Source of the DNA: Escherichia phage vB_EcoM_JNE01
Sequence record: OR670491
Strand: one strand, 5' to 3'
Length of the DNA: 64,000 nt
This document shows positions 1,973 to 43,424 of the stretch, one piece after another. The translations under genes were made by a program, and so were the position numbers. The notes under the pieces were generated by a model. The model worked only from the letters and a program-made list of their open reading frames with translations. It searched no databases and was not told the origin of the DNA. Within the stretch, counting starts at the first letter, position 1; the number at the start of each line of letters is the position of its first letter.

Positions 1973-2020
1973 TTGCTTCTCCTATCAATAGAATTATTTT
2001 AATTATTTATAAAATTCAGG

Positions 2021-2049
2021 TTGACAAACATCAACAATCCTAATACAAT
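2021..2049 (+). promoter_or_regulatory. sigma70-like promoter (TTGACA-17-TACAAT)
   Basis: ttgaca at 2021-2026, 17 nt spacer, tacaat at 2044-2049; about 30 nt upstream of CDS 2081. Confidence 0.5.
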
Positions 2050-2080
2050 AGTACTAAATCCAACCGAATAGGAATAAGAC

Positions 2081-2683
2081 ATGACTTGCATCATCGCTCA
2101 CGCAACACGTACTTCATCGTTTATTGCTGCTGACAAGTTAGGTAGCAATAACTTTACAAAAGCAATCCAATCTGAGCCAAAGATCTTTGAGAAAGAGTTC
2201 GATTCTCGTGTATTGGAAGAAGGGTTTATCCCAACAATTCACAAAGATACCATGACAATCGGATACACTACATCGTTCCGTATGGGACAGTTGTTGGAAC
2301 ATTGTCTTGTTCTACCAGAGAAGCAACCAACCCAATCGTTCAAGGAATATCTAGTACAATCAGTAGTTCCAGCTATCCGCACTTTATTCCGTGAAGAATG
2401 GGGTTCTCGTGCCGATAATCAAGATGTAGGTGGTGGTCAGTTCATCATCCTTCATAAGCACAAGATCTATGAAATTCATGAAGACTTCTGTGTACTTGAA
2501 CCAAAAAACAACATCAGTGCAGTTGGTAGTGGTGCATATCATGCAATTGCAGCAATGGCAGCTTATCTAACAGTTGAAACTGAAACTGAAGTTCCATTGG
2601 TTGACCGTATTGGTTCGATCTTTGATATCGTCAGCGATCATGTTGTTAGCGTGAGTTTTGAGCATGACATTCTAAAATACTAA
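2081..2683 (+). CDS. Ntn-hydrolase, proteasome/HslV-like protein
   Basis: N-terminus MTCII (Thr/Cys directly after Met as possible nucleophile); C-terminal AVGSGAYHAIAAMAAYL resembles HslV/proteasome GSGxxxAxxAAxAL. Confidence 0.4.
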   Translation: MTCIIAHATRTSSFIAADKLGSNNFTKAIQSEPKIFEKEFDSRVLEEGFIPTIHKDTMTIGYTTSFRMGQLLEHCLVLPEKQPTQSFKEYLVQSVVPAIRTLFREEWGSRADNQDVGGGQFIILHKHKIYEIHEDFCVLEPKNNISAVGSGAYHAIAAMAAYLTVETETEVPLVDRIGSIFDIVSDHVVSVSFEHDILKY

Positions 2684-2711
2684 TAGGTGCACTAATATAA
2701 TAAGAGAGTAC

Positions 2712-2906
2712 ATGATGACATGGGATATTCTTGACATTGTTTTGCAGTTCTTGATGATTTTGATTGCAGTTGTTTGGTACAATCACATTGTTCTGTTATA
2801 TAATGAAGTTCGTAGTACTAAAGCAGATAAACATTTGACGTACCACATTTCAATCATCGTAAGTGCTTCAATTGTTCTTCTAACGAACTATTTGTTTGCA
2901 CGTTGA
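2712..2906 (+). CDS. small membrane protein
   Basis: 64 aa hydrophobic ORF, stop overlaps the next gene start region. Confidence 0.3.
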   Translation: MMTWDILDIVLQFLMILIAVVWYNHIVLLYNEVRSTKADKHLTYHISIIVSASIVLLTNYLFAR

Positions 2907-2917
2907 AAGGTCAACAT

Positions 2918-3670
2918 ATGTCTACACAATCCTTTTTAGAAAAAGCAGGGGAAAAACGTTTACTGATAATCAGCGGGGCTGGGTTATCGGTTGAAAGTGG
3001 GATGGAGCCATTTCGTTTTGATGATGGCTTATGGGATAACTTTCAAATCAATGACGTGTGTAATATTGCACGTCTTAGTTCCAAATATCATATAGTACAT
3101 GCATTCTATAATACTCTAAGAGTAAAATTAGGTTCGTGTGAACCAAATGCAATGCACTATTACATCAAATCATTAGAGGATCAGTACAAAGATAATTTCT
3201 TACACATGACCTCCAATATGGATGATTTGTACACTCGAATCGGTGGAACCGAGTTGAAGCTTCATGGTAATCTACGAGAAGTTATTAAAAACTACTCAAT
3301 CAATAGTGATGACTATGAAGTAATTGACTGTGGTTATGAACCGTTCATTCCAGAGACTGATGTGTTCTCTAAACCAAATGTTGTTATGATTGGTGAATAT
3401 CATCGTTATGTGGATGGGAACCGTCTTCCTATCTACGAAGAACGAAATGAAGTGTTGCGTAGTCTTACTGAAAATGATACAGTAATTGTTATTGGGAGCA
3501 GTGATACAGTACTGGTATGGTCCAGACTAGCTGGGGCGTTACCTTGTTATAGTGTTACTGTTAACGTCAGAAAGAATGACAATGACTTCCTATTCAATGA
3601 ACGTATCATTAAGCCAGCAACTAAAGCAATTCCAGTACTGGAGCCAATCATTAAGGAAAGAATGAAATGA
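2918..3670 (+). CDS. SIR2-family (sirtuin-like) NAD-dependent enzyme
   Basis: ISGAGLSVESG (GAGxSxxSG NAD-binding motif), TSNMDDL (TQNxD-like), HGNL (catalytic His); no four-Cys zinc module. Start refined to ATG 2918 (RBS gaaagg); ORF-track 2903 is a TTG. Confidence 0.7.
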   Translation: MSTQSFLEKAGEKRLLIISGAGLSVESGMEPFRFDDGLWDNFQINDVCNIARLSSKYHIVHAFYNTLRVKLGSCEPNAMHYYIKSLEDQYKDNFLHMTSNMDDLYTRIGGTELKLHGNLREVIKNYSINSDDYEVIDCGYEPFIPETDVFSKPNVVMIGEYHRYVDGNRLPIYEERNEVLRSLTENDTVIVIGSSDTVLVWSRLAGALPCYSVTVNVRKNDNDFLFNERIIKPATKAIPVLEPIIKERMK

Positions 3671-4224
3671 GTTTGAGAGAAGTACCACTCGGAGAATTTG
3701 GCAAACAAGCAAACTTTGTATTCTGTTACTTCTTTGCACGAAATTGTAATCCATATGAGAATTACGAGTTGAATGATATTCCAGTAGTTAATCTGGTACT
3801 CCTTCAACTCCGTTGGGATGGGTTGATGGGTGGATGTGGAGGAACAGTTGAAGATTCTGATACTTCACTTGAAGCTGCGTTGAAGCGTGAAATCCAAGAA
3901 GAAATGGATTATAATATTTCCATTGAACAGTTGAAACCTCTAAAGACGTTTGAATTGTTCCCTGGTGCTAACACTCATAGCTTCAGTTATGAAGTCACAT
4001 ATGATGAGTTGAAAGCGATTCGTGACGGGTACAGTACTGCTAAACATGCCAGTGCTGAAGTAGCGGGTGTAAATTTATGTCACATTTCTCGATATTCTAA
4101 GGGAAAAAATCGAGAAGCAGGATATAATAATCTCATGACACAAAACTTCATTGGAACAGCTAAGGAAGAATTGCAGTACTTAGTTGAAAATGAAAACTTA
4201 CTTATCAGTTACTTACAAGGGTAG
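3667..4224 (+). CDS. Nudix hydrolase
   Basis: Nudix-box-like GGCGGTVEDSDTSLEAALKREIQEEMD (Gx5Ex7REUxEExGU pattern); start overlaps SIR2 stop (ATGA), suggesting translational coupling. Confidence 0.6.
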   Translation: MSLREVPLGEFGKQANFVFCYFFARNCNPYENYELNDIPVVNLVLLQLRWDGLMGGCGGTVEDSDTSLEAALKREIQEEMDYNISIEQLKPLKTFELFPGANTHSFSYEVTYDELKAIRDGYSTAKHASAEVAGVNLCHISRYSKGKNREAGYNNLMTQNFIGTAKEELQYLVENENLLISYLQG

Positions 4225-4230
4225 AACAAA

Positions 4231-4551
4231 ATGTCATATGAAATGTTCCTCGATGATATTCGTAACCCAGGATACTATTATCCAGGTCGTTCGATGGTTG
4301 TATGTCGTGATTTTAAAAGTGCATGTAAACAAGTTGAAAAATTTGGTATTCCATCATTTATTTCATTCGATCACGATTTGGGCGACATGAATTATGATGA
4401 AAAAACTGGGTATTCCTTCGCTAAATGGATTATTGATTATATGTTTGAGCACGAAATCAAAACACCTTTTGCATTTCATGTTCACAGTAGTAATCCAGTT
4501 GGTAAAGTGAATATCGAACATTACCTTAACAATGCATTCGAAAATTTATGA
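4231..4551 (+). CDS. hypothetical protein (conserved-looking FDHDLG / HVHSSNPVG motifs)
   Basis: 106 aa ORF immediately downstream of SIR2-Nudix pair; family not recognised. Confidence 0.45.
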   Translation: MSYEMFLDDIRNPGYYYPGRSMVVCRDFKSACKQVEKFGIPSFISFDHDLGDMNYDEKTGYSFAKWIIDYMFEHEIKTPFAFHVHSSNPVGKVNIEHYLNNAFENL

Positions 4552-4838
4552 AACAGTTAATTATAAGTGCATTAATAACAATAGCGTTATGTACGGTGTG
4601 TATTCTAATTTTGAATTATATTGACCAAAATTCAAAACAGAATGAACACTTTCAGTCCGCTGTAGTAATTTCATTAGGTCAGTGCAGTAAAAGTGCATGT
4701 TCTTTCACTTACAAAACCGAAGATGGTTATGTAATGTCTGGACTGTCAGAAAAACCAGTATCGATTGGTCAGATTGTTTACCAAAAGTGCTGGGAAACTA
4801 AAGTGCGAGGTCATGCTTGTAGTGATTTCGTGCAATAA
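4548..4838 (+). CDS. membrane/secreted small protein
   Basis: N-terminal hydrophobic segment MKQLIISALITIALCTVCILIL; ATGA overlap with upstream gene. Confidence 0.4.
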   Translation: MKQLIISALITIALCTVCILILNYIDQNSKQNEHFQSAVVISLGQCSKSACSFTYKTEDGYVMSGLSEKPVSIGQIVYQKCWETKVRGHACSDFVQ

Positions 4839-4888
4839 GTAATCTACCAATCGAGTACAAGGATGTACTCATAACTCAAGGATGTTTT

Positions 4889-6328
4889 ATGAAAAAATAT
4901 ACAATTGACACAAACGTACTACTATCTGATCCAAATGCTACCATTGCTTTTGATGGAGCAGCTATCATTCTACCGTTCACAGTACTTGAAGAATTGGATT
5001 CAATCAAAAGTCGTAATGTGGATGTTTCCCGTGATGCTCGTGTTGCAATCCGTAATATTGAAGCAATCCTTTCTGATGCATCACATGAAGAAATTAGTAG
5101 TACTGGTGTTAATATTGCTGATGTTCATACTAATATGAGTCCTGAAAGCAAATTGTTTGTTATTACAAGCGAAGAAGCTGAAGCACTAATTCGCACTGCT
5201 GGTAACGAAGAGAAAGTTCAAACTCTTCTAAAAAGCACAGTACCAGATGATAAAATCATTTTAGTAGCATTAGCAACTGATTCAGTACTGGTTACCCGTG
5301 ATATCAATATGCGTATCAAGGCTCTAAGCTACGGGGTGGAAGTTCAAGATTACCGTCATGATATCGTGATTGGTGATAGTGATTTGATTCACATTGGTCA
5401 ACATCACCTTGACCTACATTTCTGGGATGTGTATAGTAATCTGACTGATGTATCTATTCAGTCTGAACAAGTTGGTCGTCGTTTGTACCACTACATTCCA
5501 AAAAGCTTGATTGAACATATCATGCCACAAAATATTTGCATCGGTGATTACCTATATGATAATGCTGATGTTCTATTTGTGTACGAAGGCCAATCTGCAA
5601 TTGAAGAAGATGATGGTACTTTAACACCAGAAGATATTCTTGTATTCCAAGATATTGGACAATCTGTTGCTCTACGTGCTAAAGTGTGGGATATTAAGGC
5701 TAAGAATATTCAACAAGCACTAGCAATCAACAGTATCCTAGATCCTGATGTTCATCTAACAGTACTGTTGGGTTCCGCAGGTACTGGTAAAACGCTAATT
5801 ACCATTGCGACTGCACTTGAATTGGTTCTTGAGAAGAAGAAATATGACCGTATTATGTTCTCAAAACCACAAGATTCACAATGGGCCGAAATCGGTTTCT
5901 TACCAGGCACTGAAATGGAAAAAATGCTACCACATTGTGGCCCTGCATTGGATGCTTTGGAATTCTTACATAAAGATGATGCATCACCACAAGGTAGTAT
6001 TGAGGAAATAATCAAGCGTAATGTTATTCAGTTCAAAGCATTGAACTTCATTCGCGGTCGTTCATTTACCAACACTATTCTGGTTGTGGATGAGTTTCAG
6101 AACATCACACCTGCTCAGGCTAAGACAATCCTTACCCGTGCTGGCATGAACTGCAAAGTGATTATTCTTGGGAACTTGGCACAGATTGATAGTAAATTCA
6201 TTAGCCCAGTTAACAGCGGCTTAACATATGTTGTTGAGAAATTTAAAAACTGGGATGGTTGTCGAGTAATCGAACTCGAAGGTGTTGTTCGTTCACCACT
6301 GGCAGAATTTGCTGAAGAAAATATGTAA
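4889..6328 (+). CDS. phoH: PhoH-like ATPase with N-terminal PIN domain
   Basis: Walker A LLGSAGTGKTLI, Walker B ILVVDEFQN; N-terminal PIN-like MKKYTIDTNVLL; 479 aa. Confidence 0.8.
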   Translation: MKKYTIDTNVLLSDPNATIAFDGAAIILPFTVLEELDSIKSRNVDVSRDARVAIRNIEAILSDASHEEISSTGVNIADVHTNMSPESKLFVITSEEAEALIRTAGNEEKVQTLLKSTVPDDKIILVALATDSVLVTRDINMRIKALSYGVEVQDYRHDIVIGDSDLIHIGQHHLDLHFWDVYSNLTDVSIQSEQVGRRLYHYIPKSLIEHIMPQNICIGDYLYDNADVLFVYEGQSAIEEDDGTLTPEDILVFQDIGQSVALRAKVWDIKAKNIQQALAINSILDPDVHLTVLLGSAGTGKTLITIATALELVLEKKKYDRIMFSKPQDSQWAEIGFLPGTEMEKMLPHCGPALDALEFLHKDDASPQGSIEEIIKRNVIQFKALNFIRGRSFTNTILVVDEFQNITPAQAKTILTRAGMNCKVIILGNLAQIDSKFISPVNSGLTYVVEKFKNWDGCRVIELEGVVRSPLAEFAEENM

Positions 6329-6337
6329 TAATACGTC

Positions 6338-6363
6338 GGAGTGCTTTTTATAGCACTCCTTCT
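6338..6363 (+). terminator. intrinsic terminator after phoH
   Basis: GGAGTGCT-TTTTAT-AGCACTCC hairpin followed by TTCT. Confidence 0.5.
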
Positions 6364-6374
6364 AAGGAATTATA

Positions 6375-7655
6375 GTGATAATAAAACATCTGTATTATAT
6401 TGACTCAAATTTCAGAAAATACGATAAAGTTTCAAAACTTAATCCAAAATACATTACAGATGTTATTTTCCAAGAAAAATACAACATAGATCGAAACAGT
6501 ACTGAAATACTACAGGATGATATATCATCATATACACCAAACGTAACGGGTTTTTATTATATAAAATACCCAACTGGTGTTAGAAAAGTTTATGCTTTAA
6601 AATGTAATGAGTGCTCTAAAAACTCAGTATTACATGGCGAAGGAATATATCTGGTTCACTTGTCACACATCAAAAACGGAATCATTTCGTGTGGGTGTGC
6701 AAAACGCACAAACTGGACACCATATCAATATTACATAAAAATGATATCAGAATGTAAAAATCGTAATTGCATTTTTTTAGGTTACGATAAAAAACACTTA
6801 CGTTTATATTGTCTCGAACATGGTTACTGGAATACCACATCCAAAGCACACTTCTTTAATGGGAAAGGATGTAGTAAATGTGGGGACACCAATTCAAGAG
6901 TGTTGAGAACAAAAGACAGTTATTTTCATATATCTAAATTTAAAATCTTAAATGCGTATAATTATCGACGTTCCGACAAGATTGATAGTAGTGGTCGCTT
7001 GCGTTATTGGGAATATATGTGTAAGAAATGTTCACATGATGAGTATGTTAGGCTCGGTTTGTGTAATGGGATTTTTACATCATTTAATAGTGATTTAGTA
7101 AAGGGTAAGAAATCATGTCGTTGTTCAAGTAACTATAGATGGACAGAAAAACAGCGTGAATATCAAATCACCAAACTCCTAAAATCCAATTTTCCTCACA
7201 TTAGCTTTAAAGGTTGGGTAAATAGTTATAAAAATATCCATAGTAAGGCGATTTTAAATTGTAATATTCATAATAATTATACGCAAAAAGTAAACTACAT
7301 ACTTAATAATAATTGTGGTTGTCCACAATGTGCTGGGATGACACAGACAGAATGTTATATAAATGTAATATATGATGTGTTTCCAATTGCTATAAAATAT
7401 GGAATTTCAACACATACAAAAAACCGCGTTTGTAGTCAAAATAATAAATCACCATTTGACGTTATTAATCATGGAATTTGGGATTTTGAAAATCCATATT
7501 TATGCAAAATGGCAGAAAATGAATGCAAGCGAACGGTAAGTCGTGTTCTATCAGAACGCGAGCTACCTGACGGATTTACTGAAACCGCTGAAGTGAAATA
7601 TATTGATGATATAATTAAAATATATGAAAGCTGGGGTGGTATCAAACGAAAATAG
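6375..7655 (+). CDS. Cys-rich repeat protein (zinc-ribbon-like repeats), possibly mobile-element derived
   Basis: 426 aa; at least four repeats of CxxC...HGxW...CxxC; markedly AT-richer codon usage than neighbours; GTG start with RBS aagga. Confidence 0.45.
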   Translation: MIIKHLYYIDSNFRKYDKVSKLNPKYITDVIFQEKYNIDRNSTEILQDDISSYTPNVTGFYYIKYPTGVRKVYALKCNECSKNSVLHGEGIYLVHLSHIKNGIISCGCAKRTNWTPYQYYIKMISECKNRNCIFLGYDKKHLRLYCLEHGYWNTTSKAHFFNGKGCSKCGDTNSRVLRTKDSYFHISKFKILNAYNYRRSDKIDSSGRLRYWEYMCKKCSHDEYVRLGLCNGIFTSFNSDLVKGKKSCRCSSNYRWTEKQREYQITKLLKSNFPHISFKGWVNSYKNIHSKAILNCNIHNNYTQKVNYILNNNCGCPQCAGMTQTECYINVIYDVFPIAIKYGISTHTKNRVCSQNNKSPFDVINHGIWDFENPYLCKMAENECKRTVSRVLSERELPDGFTETAEVKYIDDIIKIYESWGGIKRK

Positions 7656-7726
7656 TAGTTTTTTGTAGACAAAACGAAAAATAGTGATATAATAATGTTA
7701 TTAACAACAAAGAAGGAGAATCAATC

Positions 7727-7924
7727 ATGGCTAAACAACCTAAGAAAAAAGAACCTGAAGTTAAAGTTAAGAAAGTTAAAGTTATTCAATCTAAAGAACA
7801 ACGTAATTACGAACTACGTAAAGCAGAAACCCTATCAGGTCTTCAAGCTCTACGTAAACAAGGTGTTCTAACTCGTGCTCAATACCGTGAGATAGTAGCA
7901 CAAAAAGGTTATTGGTCCATTTGA
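7727..7924 (+). CDS. small basic protein
   Basis: 65 aa, lysine-rich N-terminus, RBS aaggag 7 nt upstream. Confidence 0.45.
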   Translation: MAKQPKKKEPEVKVKKVKVIQSKEQRNYELRKAETLSGLQALRKQGVLTRAQYREIVAQKGYWSI

Positions 7925-8020
7925 AGCAATAAACTGGAGTTCTTCATAAATACTTTCATAAGAATAATAATACTTTTTATGAAAATTAAAAAGAACTCCA
8001 TGTGTTATTTCAGTTTTTCA

Positions 8021-13464: not shown

Positions 13465-15267
13465 ATGCAACTAGATAAACTTTACACGGACGTGACTAAT
13501 TTCCTCAATCAGAACAATTCTGACCTAACCAACGAAAACGCGAATAAGGATGCTAAATGTGTCAATACCCATAGAGACTTGCTTGCAGGTATTCTTTCTA
13601 AACACTATTCACAAGATGTTATTGCACCCGACCTGATGCAATGGCATAATGATGGATATGGTCATATTCATGATTTGGACTACTATATTAGCCCGTTAAC
13701 TAACTGTTGCTTAGTAAATTACCCTGATATGCTCAAGAACGGTTTTACTATTGGCTGTGCCAAAATTGAAGAACCAAAGAGTTTCAGTGTAGCGTGTACA
13801 GTACTGACACAGATTGTTCAAGCTGTTGCTAGTTCCCAGTACGGTGGTCAATCACTGGCACATATTGATGTTGGTTTAGAACCATACGTCGAAAAGTCAT
13901 GGAATAAGCTATTAGCTAAACAAAAGAAATACAATCTAAGTACTGAATATATTGAAGAAGAATTACGTAAAGAAGTATATGATGGTTGTCAAACTCTCCT
14001 GTACCAGACTAACTCTATGATTAGTACCAATGGTCAGGCTGCATTCATTTCTTTAAGCTTAGGACTGAATACTTCCAAATTTGGCAAACTAATCACTGAA
14101 CAGTACTTAAAAGTACATGAAAATGGTTTAGGTGTTAATAAGATCACTCCGGTGTTCCCTAAAGTGATTTTCTTTTTACAAGATGGCATTAACATGAATC
14201 CAAAGGATATTAGCTACGATATGAAGCAATTGGCTATGCGTTGTGCTTCTAAGCGTATATACCCTGATTTCGTTAGTGTTCCACTAAATCACAAGGTTAC
14301 TGGGGCATCAAGTGCTGTTACTCCTATGGGATGCCGAAGCTTCTTAGGTAAATGGGAAGATGCTAATGGAAACGAACAGTACAATGGTCGCTTCAACTTA
14401 GGTGTAGTGTCTATCAACTTACCGCTAATTGCTCTTGAAAGCACTTCAGATGGTGATTTCTTTGATAAGATAGACGAGCACATGAATATTGCGTACAGAG
14501 CACAGATGAACCGTGTAGAGCGTTTAAAAGGTACTAAGGCTAAACAGAACCCTATCCTGTTCATGGAAGGTGCTCTTGCTCGTCTTGGTGCAGAAGAAAC
14601 TATTGACAAACTCTTCTACGATGGTTATGCTAGTATCAGTATTGGATATGTAGGATTAGTTGAATGTTCAGAGATTTTGACTGGTTCAATCAGTAAAGAG
14701 TTCTGCATGTCAGTACTGAATTATATGAAAGTGAAATGTGATGAATTCAAGAATGAGAGCAATATAGCCTTTAGTCTATATGGAACTCCTGCTGAATCAT
14801 TATGTTACAAGTTTGCTCGTTGTATCGAGGTAAAACACCCATCAGTACTTAAACGTGACTACATTACAAACTCATTCCATCAACCTGTATGGGTTGAGAG
14901 TACTCCATTCGAGAAGTGGGTTTATGAAGAAGGATTTGCATATTTGAGTGCAGGTGGTAACATTAGCTACGTCGAGTCACCAAATCTTTCAAACAACATA
15001 CAAGCACTAGAAACACTAATAAACTACGCATATACTAAGATTCCTTACTTTGGTATCAACCAACCAGTGGATCGTTGTTATGAGTGTAATTTTGAAGGTG
15101 AGTTCAGTGTTGATAAGCACGGGTTCCATTGTCCAGTTTGTGATAACAGAAATGAGAAAACCATCTCTGTAATTCGTCGTGTATCTGGATACTTAGGAAA
15201 TCCGTCTTCCCGTGGTTTTAACAAGGGTAAACAGCAAGAATGTTGTGAGAGAGTACAACACAAATAA
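13465..15267 (+). CDS. nrdD: anaerobic ribonucleoside-triphosphate reductase (class III RNR)
   Basis: 600 aa; C-terminal Zn ribbon CYECNFEG...CPVCDN and glycyl-radical motif RVSGYLG; overall NrdD-like. Confidence 0.95.
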   Translation: MQLDKLYTDVTNFLNQNNSDLTNENANKDAKCVNTHRDLLAGILSKHYSQDVIAPDLMQWHNDGYGHIHDLDYYISPLTNCCLVNYPDMLKNGFTIGCAKIEEPKSFSVACTVLTQIVQAVASSQYGGQSLAHIDVGLEPYVEKSWNKLLAKQKKYNLSTEYIEEELRKEVYDGCQTLLYQTNSMISTNGQAAFISLSLGLNTSKFGKLITEQYLKVHENGLGVNKITPVFPKVIFFLQDGINMNPKDISYDMKQLAMRCASKRIYPDFVSVPLNHKVTGASSAVTPMGCRSFLGKWEDANGNEQYNGRFNLGVVSINLPLIALESTSDGDFFDKIDEHMNIAYRAQMNRVERLKGTKAKQNPILFMEGALARLGAEETIDKLFYDGYASISIGYVGLVECSEILTGSISKEFCMSVLNYMKVKCDEFKNESNIAFSLYGTPAESLCYKFARCIEVKHPSVLKRDYITNSFHQPVWVESTPFEKWVYEEGFAYLSAGGNISYVESPNLSNNIQALETLINYAYTKIPYFGINQPVDRCYECNFEGEFSVDKHGFHCPVCDNRNEKTISVIRRVSGYLGNPSSRGFNKGKQQECCERVQHK

Positions 15268-40322: not shown

Positions 40323-40649
40323 ATGCTAAATTTCGTTATCCAAGGTAATGTAGATGTTACTCCAGCAATTCATGACGCAATCCGCGATGAAGCAACAGTA
40401 CTAAGTAAATTTAGTGATGCTTCAGTACTGAATCTTGGTGTTCATCTGAAGAAAGAGCATAAAACACAGTACACTGTAACACTAACTTCTAATGGTAAGT
40501 CTGTTACTGCAAATGCAGCAGATTTATACAAAGCGATTAGTGATTCATTTGAAAAAATGGAAGTTGTACTTGGTAAAGACAAAAGCATTAAACTGCATCG
40601 TCGTAACCACCCAACACGTCCTCTGGACTTGACAGAAGACGAAGAGTAA
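40323..40649 (+). CDS. hpf: ribosome hibernation promoting factor / RaiA-like protein
   Basis: 108 aa; MLNFVIQGNVDVTPAIHDAIRDE...LHRRNH follows the HPF/YfiA pattern (N-terminal ITGxNVEITPALR-like, basic C-terminus). Confidence 0.6.
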   Translation: MLNFVIQGNVDVTPAIHDAIRDEATVLSKFSDASVLNLGVHLKKEHKTQYTVTLTSNGKSVTANAADLYKAISDSFEKMEVVLGKDKSIKLHRRNHPTRPLDLTEDEE

Positions 40650-41802: not shown

Positions 41803-42915
41803 ATGAAAAAATATCTCGTGGGTGGATTCGTCCGCGACCGACTACTGGGCTTACGTGCTAAAGACAAAGATTATGTCATTGTCAGTGCATCTGAATCTGA
41901 TATTAAGTACTTGAAAAGTATTGGGTACAAACAAGTCGGCATTGATTTCCCTGTATTCTTGAGTCCAGAGGGAAATGAATATGCATTAGCCAGGACTGAA
42001 CGTAAAGTCGGTGTAGGCTATAATGGCTTTGAAGTTAATACTAAAGGTGTAACCTTAGAAGACGACTTATATCGCCGTGACCTCACAATCAATGCTATTG
42101 CATACGATCCAGTACTGCAAATTCACATCGACCCATACGGTGGGAAAGATGATATTAAGAATAAAGTACTGCGTCACGTTTCAGAGCACTTCAAAGAAGA
42201 CCCATTACGTGTTCTTCGTCTTGCACGCTTTGCAACACGATATAATGACTTTACAATTCACGAAAGTACTGTTACAATGTGCACTGAAATGGTTAGTACT
42301 GGTGAGTTGAATCATCTTGTACCAGACCGTGTGTATGTTGAATTTGAAAAGGCACTCACTGAAGAGAAACCTGCCAAGTTCCTTAAGACACTGGCTAATT
42401 TCGGCTATTATGAAAAAGCATTTACTAAAACACTAACCCGTAAGGTATTAGAATTGGTTGATAACATTTCAGATAATTGTACAGAAGCATATAAGCCATA
42501 TTTCATTTGGAGTGCACTACTCGAAACAGAAGAAGTAAATAAAGACTCAGTACTGAACGAATCAATTAAAATGCCCGTTAAGTACGTGAAGTTTAGCAAT
42601 TATGTAAAACGATTCCGTGATGATATCAAGACATTCCGTAAGAAAACACCTGAAGAGATGGGTGCGTTGTTACTGGAAATGAACATTCGAAATAACGGTG
42701 GGGAAGAATTCCTGTACAAAGTGCTGGAGTACTTTATTCTTCGTCGTGAAATCGACCTTGAACTTGAAGATTTGATTATTAAGGTGTATGATCGTTACAC
42801 CGATACTGTATTACCTGATATTGAAGAAATGGTTAAAGACGGTTCTCTGGACAAGAAAGATATTCGTGACTTTGTACAAGGTTTGCGTATTACTGAAATC
42901 CAGAAAATGTTCTGA
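41803..42915 (+). CDS. cca: tRNA nucleotidyltransferase (CCA-adding enzyme family)
   Basis: N-terminal MKKYLVGGFVRDRLLGL ... DxD ... GIDFPVFLSPEGNEYALARTERK ... RRDLTINA closely follows class II CCA-adding enzyme head domain. Confidence 0.85.
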   Translation: MKKYLVGGFVRDRLLGLRAKDKDYVIVSASESDIKYLKSIGYKQVGIDFPVFLSPEGNEYALARTERKVGVGYNGFEVNTKGVTLEDDLYRRDLTINAIAYDPVLQIHIDPYGGKDDIKNKVLRHVSEHFKEDPLRVLRLARFATRYNDFTIHESTVTMCTEMVSTGELNHLVPDRVYVEFEKALTEEKPAKFLKTLANFGYYEKAFTKTLTRKVLELVDNISDNCTEAYKPYFIWSALLETEEVNKDSVLNESIKMPVKYVKFSNYVKRFRDDIKTFRKKTPEEMGALLLEMNIRNNGGEEFLYKVLEYFILRREIDLELEDLIIKVYDRYTDTVLPDIEEMVKDGSLDKKDIRDFVQGLRITEIQKMF

Positions 42916-42991: not shown

Positions 42992-43424
42992 ATGCGTTAT
43001 AGTTGTGGTATAATATTTTATCGTGATGGTCAGATACTTGTTGGTCATACAACACGGACAGCAGCACTGGGATTTACCTAAAGGTAAAACTGAAGGTGAT
43101 GAAACATTTAAAGAAGCTGCGGTTCGTGAGTGTTATGAAGAGACAGGATTCCAAATCAATGAAGATGATTTACTTCTTCTTGGTGATGTTTCTTATAGAA
43201 AGGGTAAGAGATTAGTATTATTCTTTTATACTGCAAAGGATAAGCCAATCCCTTCAGAACTGGAATGTAAAAGTACTTATACCAACCGATACGGTAGAAG
43301 TCATCCAGAACTGGATAAGTTCATGTACATTGATGTAGAAGATTGTCAAAAGTATTTGACTGAACGAATGTGTAATAGTATAATAAAGGCTGTTAAAGCT
43401 TTTCAAAGAAACAGAAGGAAATGA
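42992..43424 (+). CDS. Nudix hydrolase with apparent +1 frameshift near 43065-43080
   Basis: ATG 42992 opens MRYSCGIIFYRDGQILVGHTTR... (typical Nudix N-terminal strand) but stops at 43081; Nudix box GKTEGDETFKEAAVRECYEETGF continues in the ORF-track frame 43023..43424. Confidence 0.55.

Follow-up and report, generated by a model that had tools for sequence, protein, structure and literature searches.

A zinc-less sirtuin, a NUDT16-like Nudix hydrolase and a cREC protein in a conserved Asteriusvirus cassette: a possible NAD-consuming module for RNA-end processing

What task might unite a sirtuin, a Nudix hydrolase and a small third protein encoded in close succession by a giant Escherichia phage? 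The locus lies in a stretch of 64,000 nt, referred to here as the window. A reading made from the sequence alone (the sequence-only reading) had rightly taken this stretch for phage DNA and had described a three-gene NAD/ADP-ribose cassette at 2903-4551. The NAD/ADP-ribose theme proved reasonable, and the cassette itself stands as an observation, with the sirtuin, Nudix and third ORFs all on the + strand within 2918-4551. It is also already known as a published computational prediction that was rediscovered here: Iyer, Burroughs, Anantharaman & Aravind (2022; PMC9503650, section 3.7.3) described the sirtuin neighborhood by comparative genomics and predicted for it a KptA/Tpt1-like, NAD-dependent removal of RNA 2'-phosphates.

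The first gene (2918..3670, + strand) encodes a zinc-less, class III-like sirtuin of 250 amino acids. Its ORF is open from TTG 2903, where the sequence-only reading had begun the cassette; the likely start is instead ATG 2918, given an AAAGG ribosome-binding site, the matching N-termini of homologs and the annotation of the phage Turkey5, the nearest relative. The protein matched Pfam SIR2 (PF02146) at 71.2 bits (1.4e-19; gathering cut-off of 24 bits) over profile positions 1-178 of 180. With numbering from ATG 2918, it contains GAGLS (residues 20-24), FR (32-33), TSNMD (98-102) and HG (116-117), with His116 as the catalytic histidine. The NAD-site and catalytic motifs GAGxS, FR, TxNxD, HG and GSS are all present, with the NAD site intact, and they are invariant in the clade alignment; RaK2-type sirtuins differ in having GNG and in lacking FR. 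No cysteine cluster was found in the protein, in agreement with the earlier claim that the zinc module is absent. In the alignment with CobB, the cysteine-bearing segment is either missing or has given way to a GY motif, and across the whole viral sirtuin clade the zinc-binding cysteines are missing, with a conserved GY instead. To our knowledge, these cysteines are found in every characterized deacylase sirtuin.

By sequence and fold, the phage sirtuin is closest to protein deacylases, with CobB, Sir2Af, PfSir2A, SIRT1/4/5 and SirTM as its nearest sequences or structures. It resembles the class III deacylases CobB and SIRT5 in its GAGxS, FR, TxNxD, HG and GSS motifs and in structure (Foldseek TMq of 0.75 to CobB), and the similarity to CobB is close over the N-terminal ~115 residues; the 'IGE' substrate loop, equivalent to FGE, and the catalytic histidine are conserved. 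Unlike CobB and SIRT5, it lacks the zinc cysteines and carries the clade-specific GY motif; compared with CobB, it has 8 additional residues following the FGE-like loop, and L67 stands in place of the arginine of the Y-x-x-R acyl-recognition pair. Scores against the NCBIfam CobB equivalogs (NF040867 and related models) were 83-87 bits, below their cut-offs of 243-320. Word-indexed homolog searches with the sirtuin and the Nudix protein returned 19 and 14 proteins, respectively, all of them close relatives and none an informative fusion. Roughly a thousand sequenced phage records contain sirtuins of this clade, spread over T5-like, rV5-like, KVP40-like and RaK2-like jumbo phages.

The sirtuin stop codon and the start codon of the second gene overlap in an ATGA at 3667-3670, read directly, which bears out the translational coupling noted previously. 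The second gene (3667..4224, + strand) encodes a NUDT16-like Nudix hydrolase of 185 amino acids, which matched Pfam Nudt16-like (PF22327) at 70.8 bits (1.7e-19; gathering cut-off of 27 bits), Pfam NUDIX (PF00293) at 28.4 bits (1.8e-6; cut-off of 21.1 bits) and phrog_9999 at 5.8e-83. Its Nudix box reads G58...R74-E75-I-Q-E78-E79 (REx2EE). Residues 36-179 aligned with NUDT16/X29 in the PDB at about 1e-11, and the protein shares with human NUDT16 and Xenopus X29 full-length homology, the same variant Nudix box and a C-terminal FIGxAxE motif; it differs from them in being genomically coupled or fused to cREC. The profile searches therefore confirmed both the SIR2 and the Nudix families, with no unrelated Rossmann assignment.

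The third gene (4231..4551, + strand) follows the Nudix gene after a gap of 6 nt and encodes a protein of 106 amino acids. The FDHDLG (residues 46-51) and HSSNPVG (85-91) motifs that had been picked out in it are present, whereas the label 'unknown' no longer applies: given its match to Pfam cREC_REC (PF20274) at 81.7 bits (6.4e-23; gathering cut-off of 27 bits), it belongs to a named family, that of cyclic-phosphate-processing receiver-like (cREC) proteins. Its fold is receiver-like, and acidic residues are conserved where β1 and β3 end. Sequence and profile searches of the PDB yielded nothing meaningful for cREC, a family without a solved structure, for which cyclic-phosphate phosphoesterase activity has been predicted (PMC7824862, PMC9503650). 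For all three proteins the profile scores lie well beyond anything expected by chance, and confident structure models accompany the family assignments.

The conserved unit extends beyond these three genes. A second ATGA overlap (4548-4551) joins the cREC stop to the start of a gene (4548..4838, + strand) for a small membrane-anchored protein of 96 amino acids, which matched phrog_14661 at 1.6e-27 and which, as aligned, has a hydrophobic N-terminal stretch and four conserved cysteines (GQC..C..QxCW..C). Its place in the gene order is unchanged in RaK2, BF, CBB, Munch, PBECO4 and 7 IMG/VR contigs, and in relatives it is always followed by the PIN-PhoH2 gene. The latter (4889..6328, + strand) encodes a PhoH2-type RNA helicase/nuclease of 479 amino acids, with an N-terminal PIN_4 domain (1.7e-20) and a C-terminal PhoH ATPase domain (2e-44) in Pfam. 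Given that its score against the NCBIfam model 'RNA 5'-3' helicase PhoH2' was 160 bits (1.2e-46) and the cut-off is 680, it is not a PhoH2 equivalog. The unit is thus one of five genes, from the sirtuin to PIN-PhoH2 (2918-6328), rather than the three ORFs first outlined.

Directly 5' of the sirtuin lies a hydrophobic ORF of 64 amino acids (2712..2906, + strand), the membership of which is uncertain. It had no family match in Pfam or phrog searches and is annotated as hypothetical in Turkey5, and no homolog was detectable in sister genera, in which another small ORF fills this spot. Farther upstream in Asteriusvirus are genes for HslV-like and ClpP-like proteases. The best sigma-70-like promoter match (11/12 to the consensus; 2021..2049, + strand) lies 5' of the HslV-like gene and may mark the start of a transcription unit, and no terminator-like site with a T-run was found on the + strand in 2700-8020. 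The promoter/terminator scan is a weak guide only, since the total of promoter-like sites was not above that of shuffles.

The same gene order recurs in every genus of RaK2-like jumbo phages that was examined. The five genes are collinear in RaK2, BF, CBB, Munch, PBECO4 and all seven RaK2-like IMG/VR contigs, with sirtuin identities of 43-84% across these carriers (43-62% to sister genera), so that the co-conservation expected for the original three genes was found in related phages. Serratia phage BF, the type 1 neighborhood of PMC9503650, belongs to this same RaK2-like jumbo group, and the defining linkage of that type, a viral-clade sirtuin with Nudix, cREC and a PIN protein, is present here. 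There are also differences. Nudix and cREC are a single fused ORF in BF, CBB and related contigs and two separate ORFs here; the type 1 neighborhood has a linked 2H phosphoesterase, none of which was found here by tblastn; and sister genera have NMNAT/NAMPT and 2H (Acb1-family) genes upstream in place of the protease genes. The passages on this neighborhood in PMC9503650 make no mention that we found of the small membrane protein.

Wider comparison linked both the sirtuin clade and cREC to RNA repair. In the rV5-like phage MaxBurger, a sirtuin of the same clade comes third, after an RNA ligase and cREC, and beside this trio are a kinase and a metallophosphoesterase; in T5 one lies near an HAD_SAK_2 RNA-repair phosphatase. 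In four IMG/VR contigs (L013, L015, L017, L019), cREC follows kinase-Rnl1 without any sirtuin; in Chryseobacterium (41 of 77 bacterial loci), it is clustered with a T4 Rnl2-type ligase, RNase T, a metallophosphoesterase and an MBL protein. The RNA-repair context was derived again here, with cREC beside Rnl1, Rnl2 and kinases and the sirtuin clade beside RNA ligase/cREC or HAD-SAK, and it points first to RNA-end repair. Together with the translational coupling and the Nudix-cREC fusion, these recurrent neighbors argue for one shared pathway. RNA repair is also favored by Rnl1 and Pnkp genes 16-19 kb upstream in Turkey5 and by a gene for a CCA-adding enzyme in the window itself.

We tentatively identify the block 2918-6328 as the Asteriusvirus version of the predicted sirtuin-centered, NAD-consuming RNA-end processing module, a reading to which we give somewhat less than an even chance. 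Its basis, as observed here, is the protein families, the intact catalytic residues, the coupling, the gene order, the Nudix-cREC fusion and the RNA-repair linkage, from which we infer all substrates and reaction steps. Host anticodon nucleases or other metal-independent RNases would generate 2',3'-cyclic phosphate ends, and these would give rise to 2'-phosphate ends. The sirtuin would use NAD+ as does Tpt1/KptA, with a phosphate oxygen, rather than the oxygen of an acyl-lysine, attacking C1'' and nicotinamide being released; a histidine-activated 2''-OH would then attack phosphorus, releasing ADP-ribose 1'',2''-cyclic phosphate (ADPr>P). The cREC phosphoesterase might open or remove phosphates, whether cyclic or terminal, of the RNA end, of ADPr>P or of both, the NUDT16-like Nudix would cleave the pyrophosphate of ADP-ribose to yield AMP and ribose phosphate, and PIN-PhoH2 may unwind and trim RNA. 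The mechanisms established for Tpt1 and for sirtuins can be read as parallel, which favors this scheme. A possible working analog is Tpt1/KptA-Cpd1 (2H)-Poa1 (Macro), which comprises an NAD-consuming transferase, a cyclic phosphodiesterase and clearance of the ADP-ribose derivative. No protein of that pathway is homologous to those of the cassette, where a sirtuin would replace the ART fold, cREC the 2H enzyme and Nudix the Macro protein.

Several observations count against RNA-end processing. The sirtuin is deacylase-like in sequence and fold, and the pI values of the cassette proteins (4.8-5.4; 5.3 for the sirtuin) do not support strong RNA binding, which speaks weakly against the model. The window contains no tRNA genes (ARAGORN), and neither an RNA ligase nor a 2H enzyme was found in it; tblastn with Rnl1, the rV5-type RNA ligase, the kinase and HAD-SAK matched neither the window nor 68-143 kb of Turkey5. 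The T4-type pathway of Pnkp and Rnl1 encoded by Turkey5 requires no 2'-phosphate removal. In T4 this pathway uses no NAD and involves neither a sirtuin nor Nudix or cREC, although there are other phages in which cREC comes after Rnl1 and a stand-alone kinase, where the Pnkp phosphatase function would be expected. The sirtuin is also missing at 73 of 80 viral cREC loci.

The upstream genes of the sister genera suggest a different role. NMNAT-Nudix and NAMPT (NARP2) and Acb1 are experimentally validated counter-defense families, and in RaK2, BF, CBB, Munch and IMG/VR relatives NMNAT-Nudix, NAMPT and a 2H protein of 148 amino acids that matches Acb1 (Pfam, 4.4e-14; PDB, E of 0.008) are encoded directly 5' of the cassette, a placement that weighs against RNA-end processing. 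Nudix and cREC, joined in sister genera by Acb1 and NARP2, might break down immune signals derived from NAD or made of cyclic nucleotides, as well as toxic ADP-ribose derivatives (gcADPR, His-ADPR, ADPr-phosphates), with the sirtuin modifying a host factor or reshaping the ADP-ribose pool. In keeping with such a role, cREC adjoins NMNAT-Nudix in three loci (L077-79) and lies near NAMPT in two (L043, L074), and the sole bacterial locus with both sirtuin and cREC (L109) is beside McrBC and Fic; breakdown of soluble ADP-ribose signals by cREC and Nudix is also weighed in PMC7824862 and PMC9503650. An NAD-consuming sirtuin would, however, be odd beside NAD rescue, NAD-salvage neighbors are equally expected for any NAD-consuming pathway, and the wider context of cREC and the sirtuin clade is one of RNA ligases, kinases and phosphatases. 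Moreover, Asteriusviruses, the window included, have the five genes without Acb1-like or NARP2 neighbors, so the link between them is separable. Neither the window nor the 68-143 kb region of Turkey5 gave a tblastn match to the sister-genus Acb1-like 2H, NMNAT-Nudix or NAMPT, the 2H gene is also missing from the annotated cassette region of PBECO4, and tblastn with NAMPT against all phages recovered every sister genus and no Asteriusvirus among the best 40 matches, which is suggestive of its absence from Asteriusvirus. Cassette genes are not involved in NARP3 (PMC13464706) or in the DruSM1 knockout screen. We regard counter-defense as unlikely here; given the NARP2 and Acb1-family genes directly upstream in sister genera, the interception of defense signals proposed in the sequence-only reading nonetheless survives as a live, weaker alternative.

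The sirtuin might instead act on proteins, as a CobB-like lysine deacylase or a mono-ADP-ribosyltransferase that reprograms host or phage proteins, with the Nudix trimming or reversing ADP-ribose adducts or O-acyl-ADP-ribose, and with cREC and PhoH2 as loosely related neighbors. Its nearest sequences and structures and its conserved 'IGE' loop and catalytic histidine are in line with this idea, as is the hydrolysis of protein-linked ADP-ribose by NUDT16. The clade-wide replacement of the zinc cysteines by GY, bit scores far under the CobB cut-offs and the absence of a Macro or acetyltransferase partner argue against it, however, and the coupling, the Nudix-cREC fusion and the RNA-repair neighbors favor a single pathway; we consider this explanation improbable. 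That the sirtuin is a free NADase by which host NAD is depleted or remodeled, as in the sequence-only reading, is a very remote prospect: the protein consists of a lone sirtuin domain whose NAD site is intact, and it shares with the defense SIR2 NADases (ThsA, DSR, SIR2-HerA, Avs5) the SIR2 Rossmann core and the lack of a zinc ribbon, but loss of NAD would harm an NAD-reliant phage, sister genera carry NAD-salvage genes adjacent to the cassette, and the proposed kinship to ThsA and DSR was rejected, given that no PADLOC defense-SIR2 family matched the sirtuin at E<=0.01 and that its structure is no closer to defense SIR2s (ThsA/DSR/SIR2-HerA/Avs) than to canonical sirtuins. Apart from this, the PADLOC scan, which covered all cassette proteins, matched the Nudix box weakly over a short stretch and the P-loop of PhoH2.

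RNA-end processing thus remains our preferred reading. A literature search revealed no experiments on sirtuins or NUDT16-like enzymes from phages or on cREC, no sirtuin acting on RNA and no report of function for any sirtuin of this phage clade. In a more far-reaching version, which we regard as possible though doubtful, the phage protein would be the first nucleic acid-directed sirtuin, an NAD-dependent RNA 2'-phosphotransferase or RNA-end ADP-ribosyltransferase derived from a CobB-like deacylase by loss of the zinc module; Nudix and cREC would provide a new, non-2H, non-Macro means of destroying ADP-ribose cyclic phosphate; and in sister phages the cassette would form, with NARP2 and Acb1, one composite island directed against RNase-based and nucleotide signal-based immunity. 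The cassette-bearing E. coli phages are genetically tractable, and the question is therefore directly testable. An NAD cost of repair, if real, would explain the NAD-salvage genes that adjoin the cassette in sister phages. If the predicted chemistry is right, the cassette would represent a new substrate class for sirtuins, the first enzymatic function for the cREC family and an NAD-costing phage answer to tRNA- and mRNA-cleaving defenses.

By sequence, the window belongs to an E. coli jumbo myovirus of the RaK2-like group, in the genus Asteriusvirus or closely related to it. Nucleotide identity over positions 2000-6400 was 93.5% to Turkey5, the nearest relative, and 77-86% to approximately 30 further phages of Escherichia and Salmonella with genomes of 350 kb. 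All ORFs named in the sequence-only reading were present, and the translational coupling proposed for the sirtuin (2918-3670) and Nudix (3667-4224) genes was seen as an ATGA overlap at 3667-3670. A second such overlap (4548-4551) connects the third gene (4231-4551) with one for a membrane-anchored protein of 96 aa with four conserved cysteines (4548-4838), and the last gene of this plus-strand cassette (4889-6328) encodes a PhoH2-type RNA helicase/RNase with PIN and PhoH domains. The 106-aa third product belongs to the receiver-like cREC family (PF20274); Iyer et al. 2021 (PMC7824862), who named the domain, predicted that it acts as a cyclic-phosphate phosphoesterase. A protein identical to this product is recorded for Escherichia phage vB_EcoM_JNE01. 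The sirtuin ORF stands as described, but its start is most likely ATG 2918 rather than the TTG at 2903, given an upstream AAAGG ribosome-binding site, the NH2-termini of homologues and the Turkey5 annotation. Just upstream of the cassette lie ClpP-like (30-692, +; PF00574, 1.6e-4) and HslV-like (2081-2683, +; phrog_1040, 2.6e-21) genes, a protease-subunit pair also found upstream of the PBECO4 sirtuin. The sole reverse-strand gene in this stretch (1064-1972, −) encodes a protein of 302 aa carrying two Ig-like domains of the Big_2 family (8.8e-28). PhoH2 is separated from the next conserved gene by a 426-aa ORF (6375-7655, +) with three CapR homology domains (PF21817, 3.5e-24; phrog_681 'endonuclease'); because Turkey5 carries just a 198-nt ORF there, it looks like a mobile homing-endonuclease insertion.

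The cassette is a real feature with clear limits and strong conservation. Its five genes (sirtuin, Nudix, cREC, membrane protein, PIN-PhoH2) recur in this order in Klebsiella phage RaK2, with gene overlaps preserved, Serratia phage BF, Pectobacterium phage CBB, Salmonella phage Munch and Escherichia phage PBECO4, as well as in 7 of the 7 RaK2-like contigs among 80 cREC loci from IMG/VR. Nudix and cREC form a single polypeptide in BF, CBB and related contigs. In a phage collection with 91 Nudix and 142 cREC records, counts of the two were equal for each enterobacterial jumbo-phage host (Escherichia 32, Klebsiella 10, Salmonella 9, Erwinia 8, Yersinia 4). Co-conservation of the first three genes, on which the sequence-only reading had depended, was clearly borne out, their order being kept in RaK2-like phages. 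Munch-like phages have a further ORF of roughly 122 aa between sirtuin and Nudix (L005:4052-4420; 122-123 aa in contigs L012 and L014), for which no family match was found.

Pfam profiles supported the first two family assignments, with matches to SIR2 (1.4e-19) and to NUDIX (1.8e-6) and Nudt16-like (1.7e-19), respectively. The Nudix protein aligned with human NUDT16 and Xenopus X29 across nearly its full length (E about 1e-11) and keeps the Nudix box residues R74-E75-x2-E78-E79. The zinc cysteines of the sirtuin are indeed absent, but the ThsA/DSR-like NADase class read from their absence did not hold, with all other evidence pointing to the canonical class III group. The strongest PDB sequence matches were to E. 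coli CobB (2e-20), with close similarity over residues 12-126, and the best 50 Foldseek matches were all CobB, Sir2Af, Sir2Tm or SIRT5. No PADLOC defence model matched the sirtuin; NCBIfam CobB models did, but with scores far under their cut-offs. Alignment to CobB and to sirtuins from RaK2, BF, MaxBurger, T5 and one KVP40-like phage showed a conserved GY motif in place of the Cys-bearing segment across the whole viral clade; a distant relative (P0019) retains CxxC...CxxC. Apart from RaK2-type changes in the NAD pocket, the jumbo-phage clade shows no variation at the NAD-site and catalytic residues. The cassette sirtuin is a derived enzyme, probably active and NAD-consuming, with a remodelled substrate-binding small domain. 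The RaK2 sirtuin (L003:3707-4441) and two homologues (P0010, P0012) have GNG for GAG and no FR dipeptide in the NAD pocket, and retain N, D and the catalytic His; nucleotide specificity may be altered or lost in such GNG-type proteins.

In several other contexts, these genes were found beside RNA-repair functions. MaxBurger, an rV5-like phage, carries in this order genes for a metallophosphoesterase, an AAA_33 kinase, an RNA ligase, cREC (PF20274, 9.8e-15) and the sirtuin; T5.102, the T5 sirtuin, is three genes away from a phosphatase of the HAD_SAK_2 "Swiss-army-knife RNA repair" family. In four sirtuin-free IMG/VR contigs (L013, L015, L017, L019), cREC comes directly after genes for a stand-alone kinase and an Rnl1 ligase of the T4 type, and at four further loci Rnl1 lies within 7 kb of it. 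Partners at 77 bacterial cREC loci, mostly from Chryseobacterium and so closely related that they amount to few independent observations, included RNase-H-like proteins (62), metallophosphoesterase (52), RNase T exonuclease (52), T4 Rnl2-type RNA ligase (41) and MBL-fold proteins (33). The conserved Chryseobacterium chromosomal cluster (L098-L172) runs RNase-H-like, ATP-grasp (R2K), cREC, DinB_2, Rnl2-type ligase, MBL-fold, metallophosphoesterase, RNase T, and has the appearance of a bacterial RNA-repair operon, so far uncharacterised, that includes cREC. Turkey5 encodes a T4-type Rnl1 (RNA_lig_T4_1 + T4_Rnl1_C) and a full Pnkp (AAA_33 + HAD_PNKP) 16-19 kb upstream of the cassette (L091:11771-12913 and 14009-14953, upstream of the window), from which the phage is predicted to possess a classical tRNA repair pair separate from the cassette. 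Turkey5 also carries two genes annotated as peptidyl-tRNA hydrolase. A translation/RNA cluster approximately 35-40 kb downstream of the cassette comprises a ribosome hibernation factor (40323-40649, +; PF02482), a CCA-adding tRNA nucleotidyltransferase (41803-42915, +; PF01743 + PF12627) and a second, small Nudix (43023-43424, +; PF00293); no tRNA gene was found anywhere within the 64-kb window.

We tentatively favour NAD-dependent RNA-end processing as the function of the cassette, at somewhat short of an even chance, because no other reading explains both the three independent contexts of the sirtuin and those of cREC without a sirtuin. Fusion of Nudix to cREC, which implies that the two act in succession on a single small molecule, also favours it, as does the good fit between sirtuin and Tpt1 chemistry. 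In both enzymes an oxygen nucleophile attacks C1'' and nicotinamide leaves, after which attack by the 2''-OH on an electrophilic centre yields a 1'',2''-cyclic species; by parallel with these established mechanisms, a Tpt1-type route would be open to the phage sirtuin. Against this model count the acidity of the cassette proteins, the protein deacylases that are the sirtuin's nearest relatives, the lack of an RNA ligase within the 64-kb window and the fact that, to our knowledge, T4-type Pnkp-Rnl1 repair generates no 2'-phosphates.

A different setting is seen in the sister genera, all of which have an NMNAT-Nudix gene and NAMPT directly upstream of the cassette. These two families compose the NAD reconstitution pathway NARP2. 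A 148-aa 2H protein also precedes the cassette (Pfam "Anti-CBASS protein Acb1", 4.4e-14; solved Acb1, E 0.008). Its gene is annotated 'RNA ligase' in BF, CBB and related phages (L002:2940-3386, L004:4288-4734, L007:4940-5386); the product just upstream of the BF and CBB sirtuins is, by its predicted family, a 2H protein. With its neighbours NMNAT-Nudix and NAMPT, it makes up a counter-defence-like island. In Munch-like contigs (L012), an HslV-like gene lies between NAMPT and the Acb1-like gene. Elsewhere, an unrelated viral contig type (L077-79) has cREC adjoining NMNAT-Nudix, two others have it near NAMPT, and a single bacterial locus (L109:4301-9250, Sulfurimonas MAG) has a viral-clade sirtuin (hmmsearch 4.5e-65) beside cREC proteins, adjoining McrBC and Fic genes. 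The ORFs flanking that sirtuin cluster with cREC; only one has a Pfam cREC match, a protein of 467 aa whose C-terminus carries a cREC domain and whose N-terminal 360 aa are unassigned. The Acb1 and NARP2 neighbours support a counter-defence role for the cassette, which we nevertheless consider unlikely: these neighbours are dispensable in Asteriusviruses, where none of the three lies beside the cassette and the HslV-like and ClpP-like protease genes lie upstream instead, and an NAD-consuming sirtuin fits such a role poorly. Protein deacylation or ADP-ribosylation by the sirtuin agrees with its fold, yet is at odds with the lost zinc module and the gene neighbours and seems similarly doubtful. 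Free NADase activity is the least supported reading and highly improbable.

RNA-end processing also accords with earlier work. Iyer et al. 2022 (PMC9503650) already describe the cassette as a predicted system for the same phage group, with rV5-type and T5-type variants, and propose that the sirtuin is KptA/Tpt1-like and removes RNA 2'-phosphates while partner enzymes resolve cyclic phosphates or degrade ADPr>P. Our neighbourhood analyses independently reproduced their three configurations and added the Chryseobacterium Rnl2 cluster, the assignment of the "2H" gene to the Acb1 family with NARP2 neighbours, and the conserved membrane protein. Our literature search found no experimental study of phage sirtuins, cREC or phage NUDT16-like enzymes. 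The remaining interest lies in the biochemistry of the cassette, which is so far predicted and is directly testable in E. coli phages.
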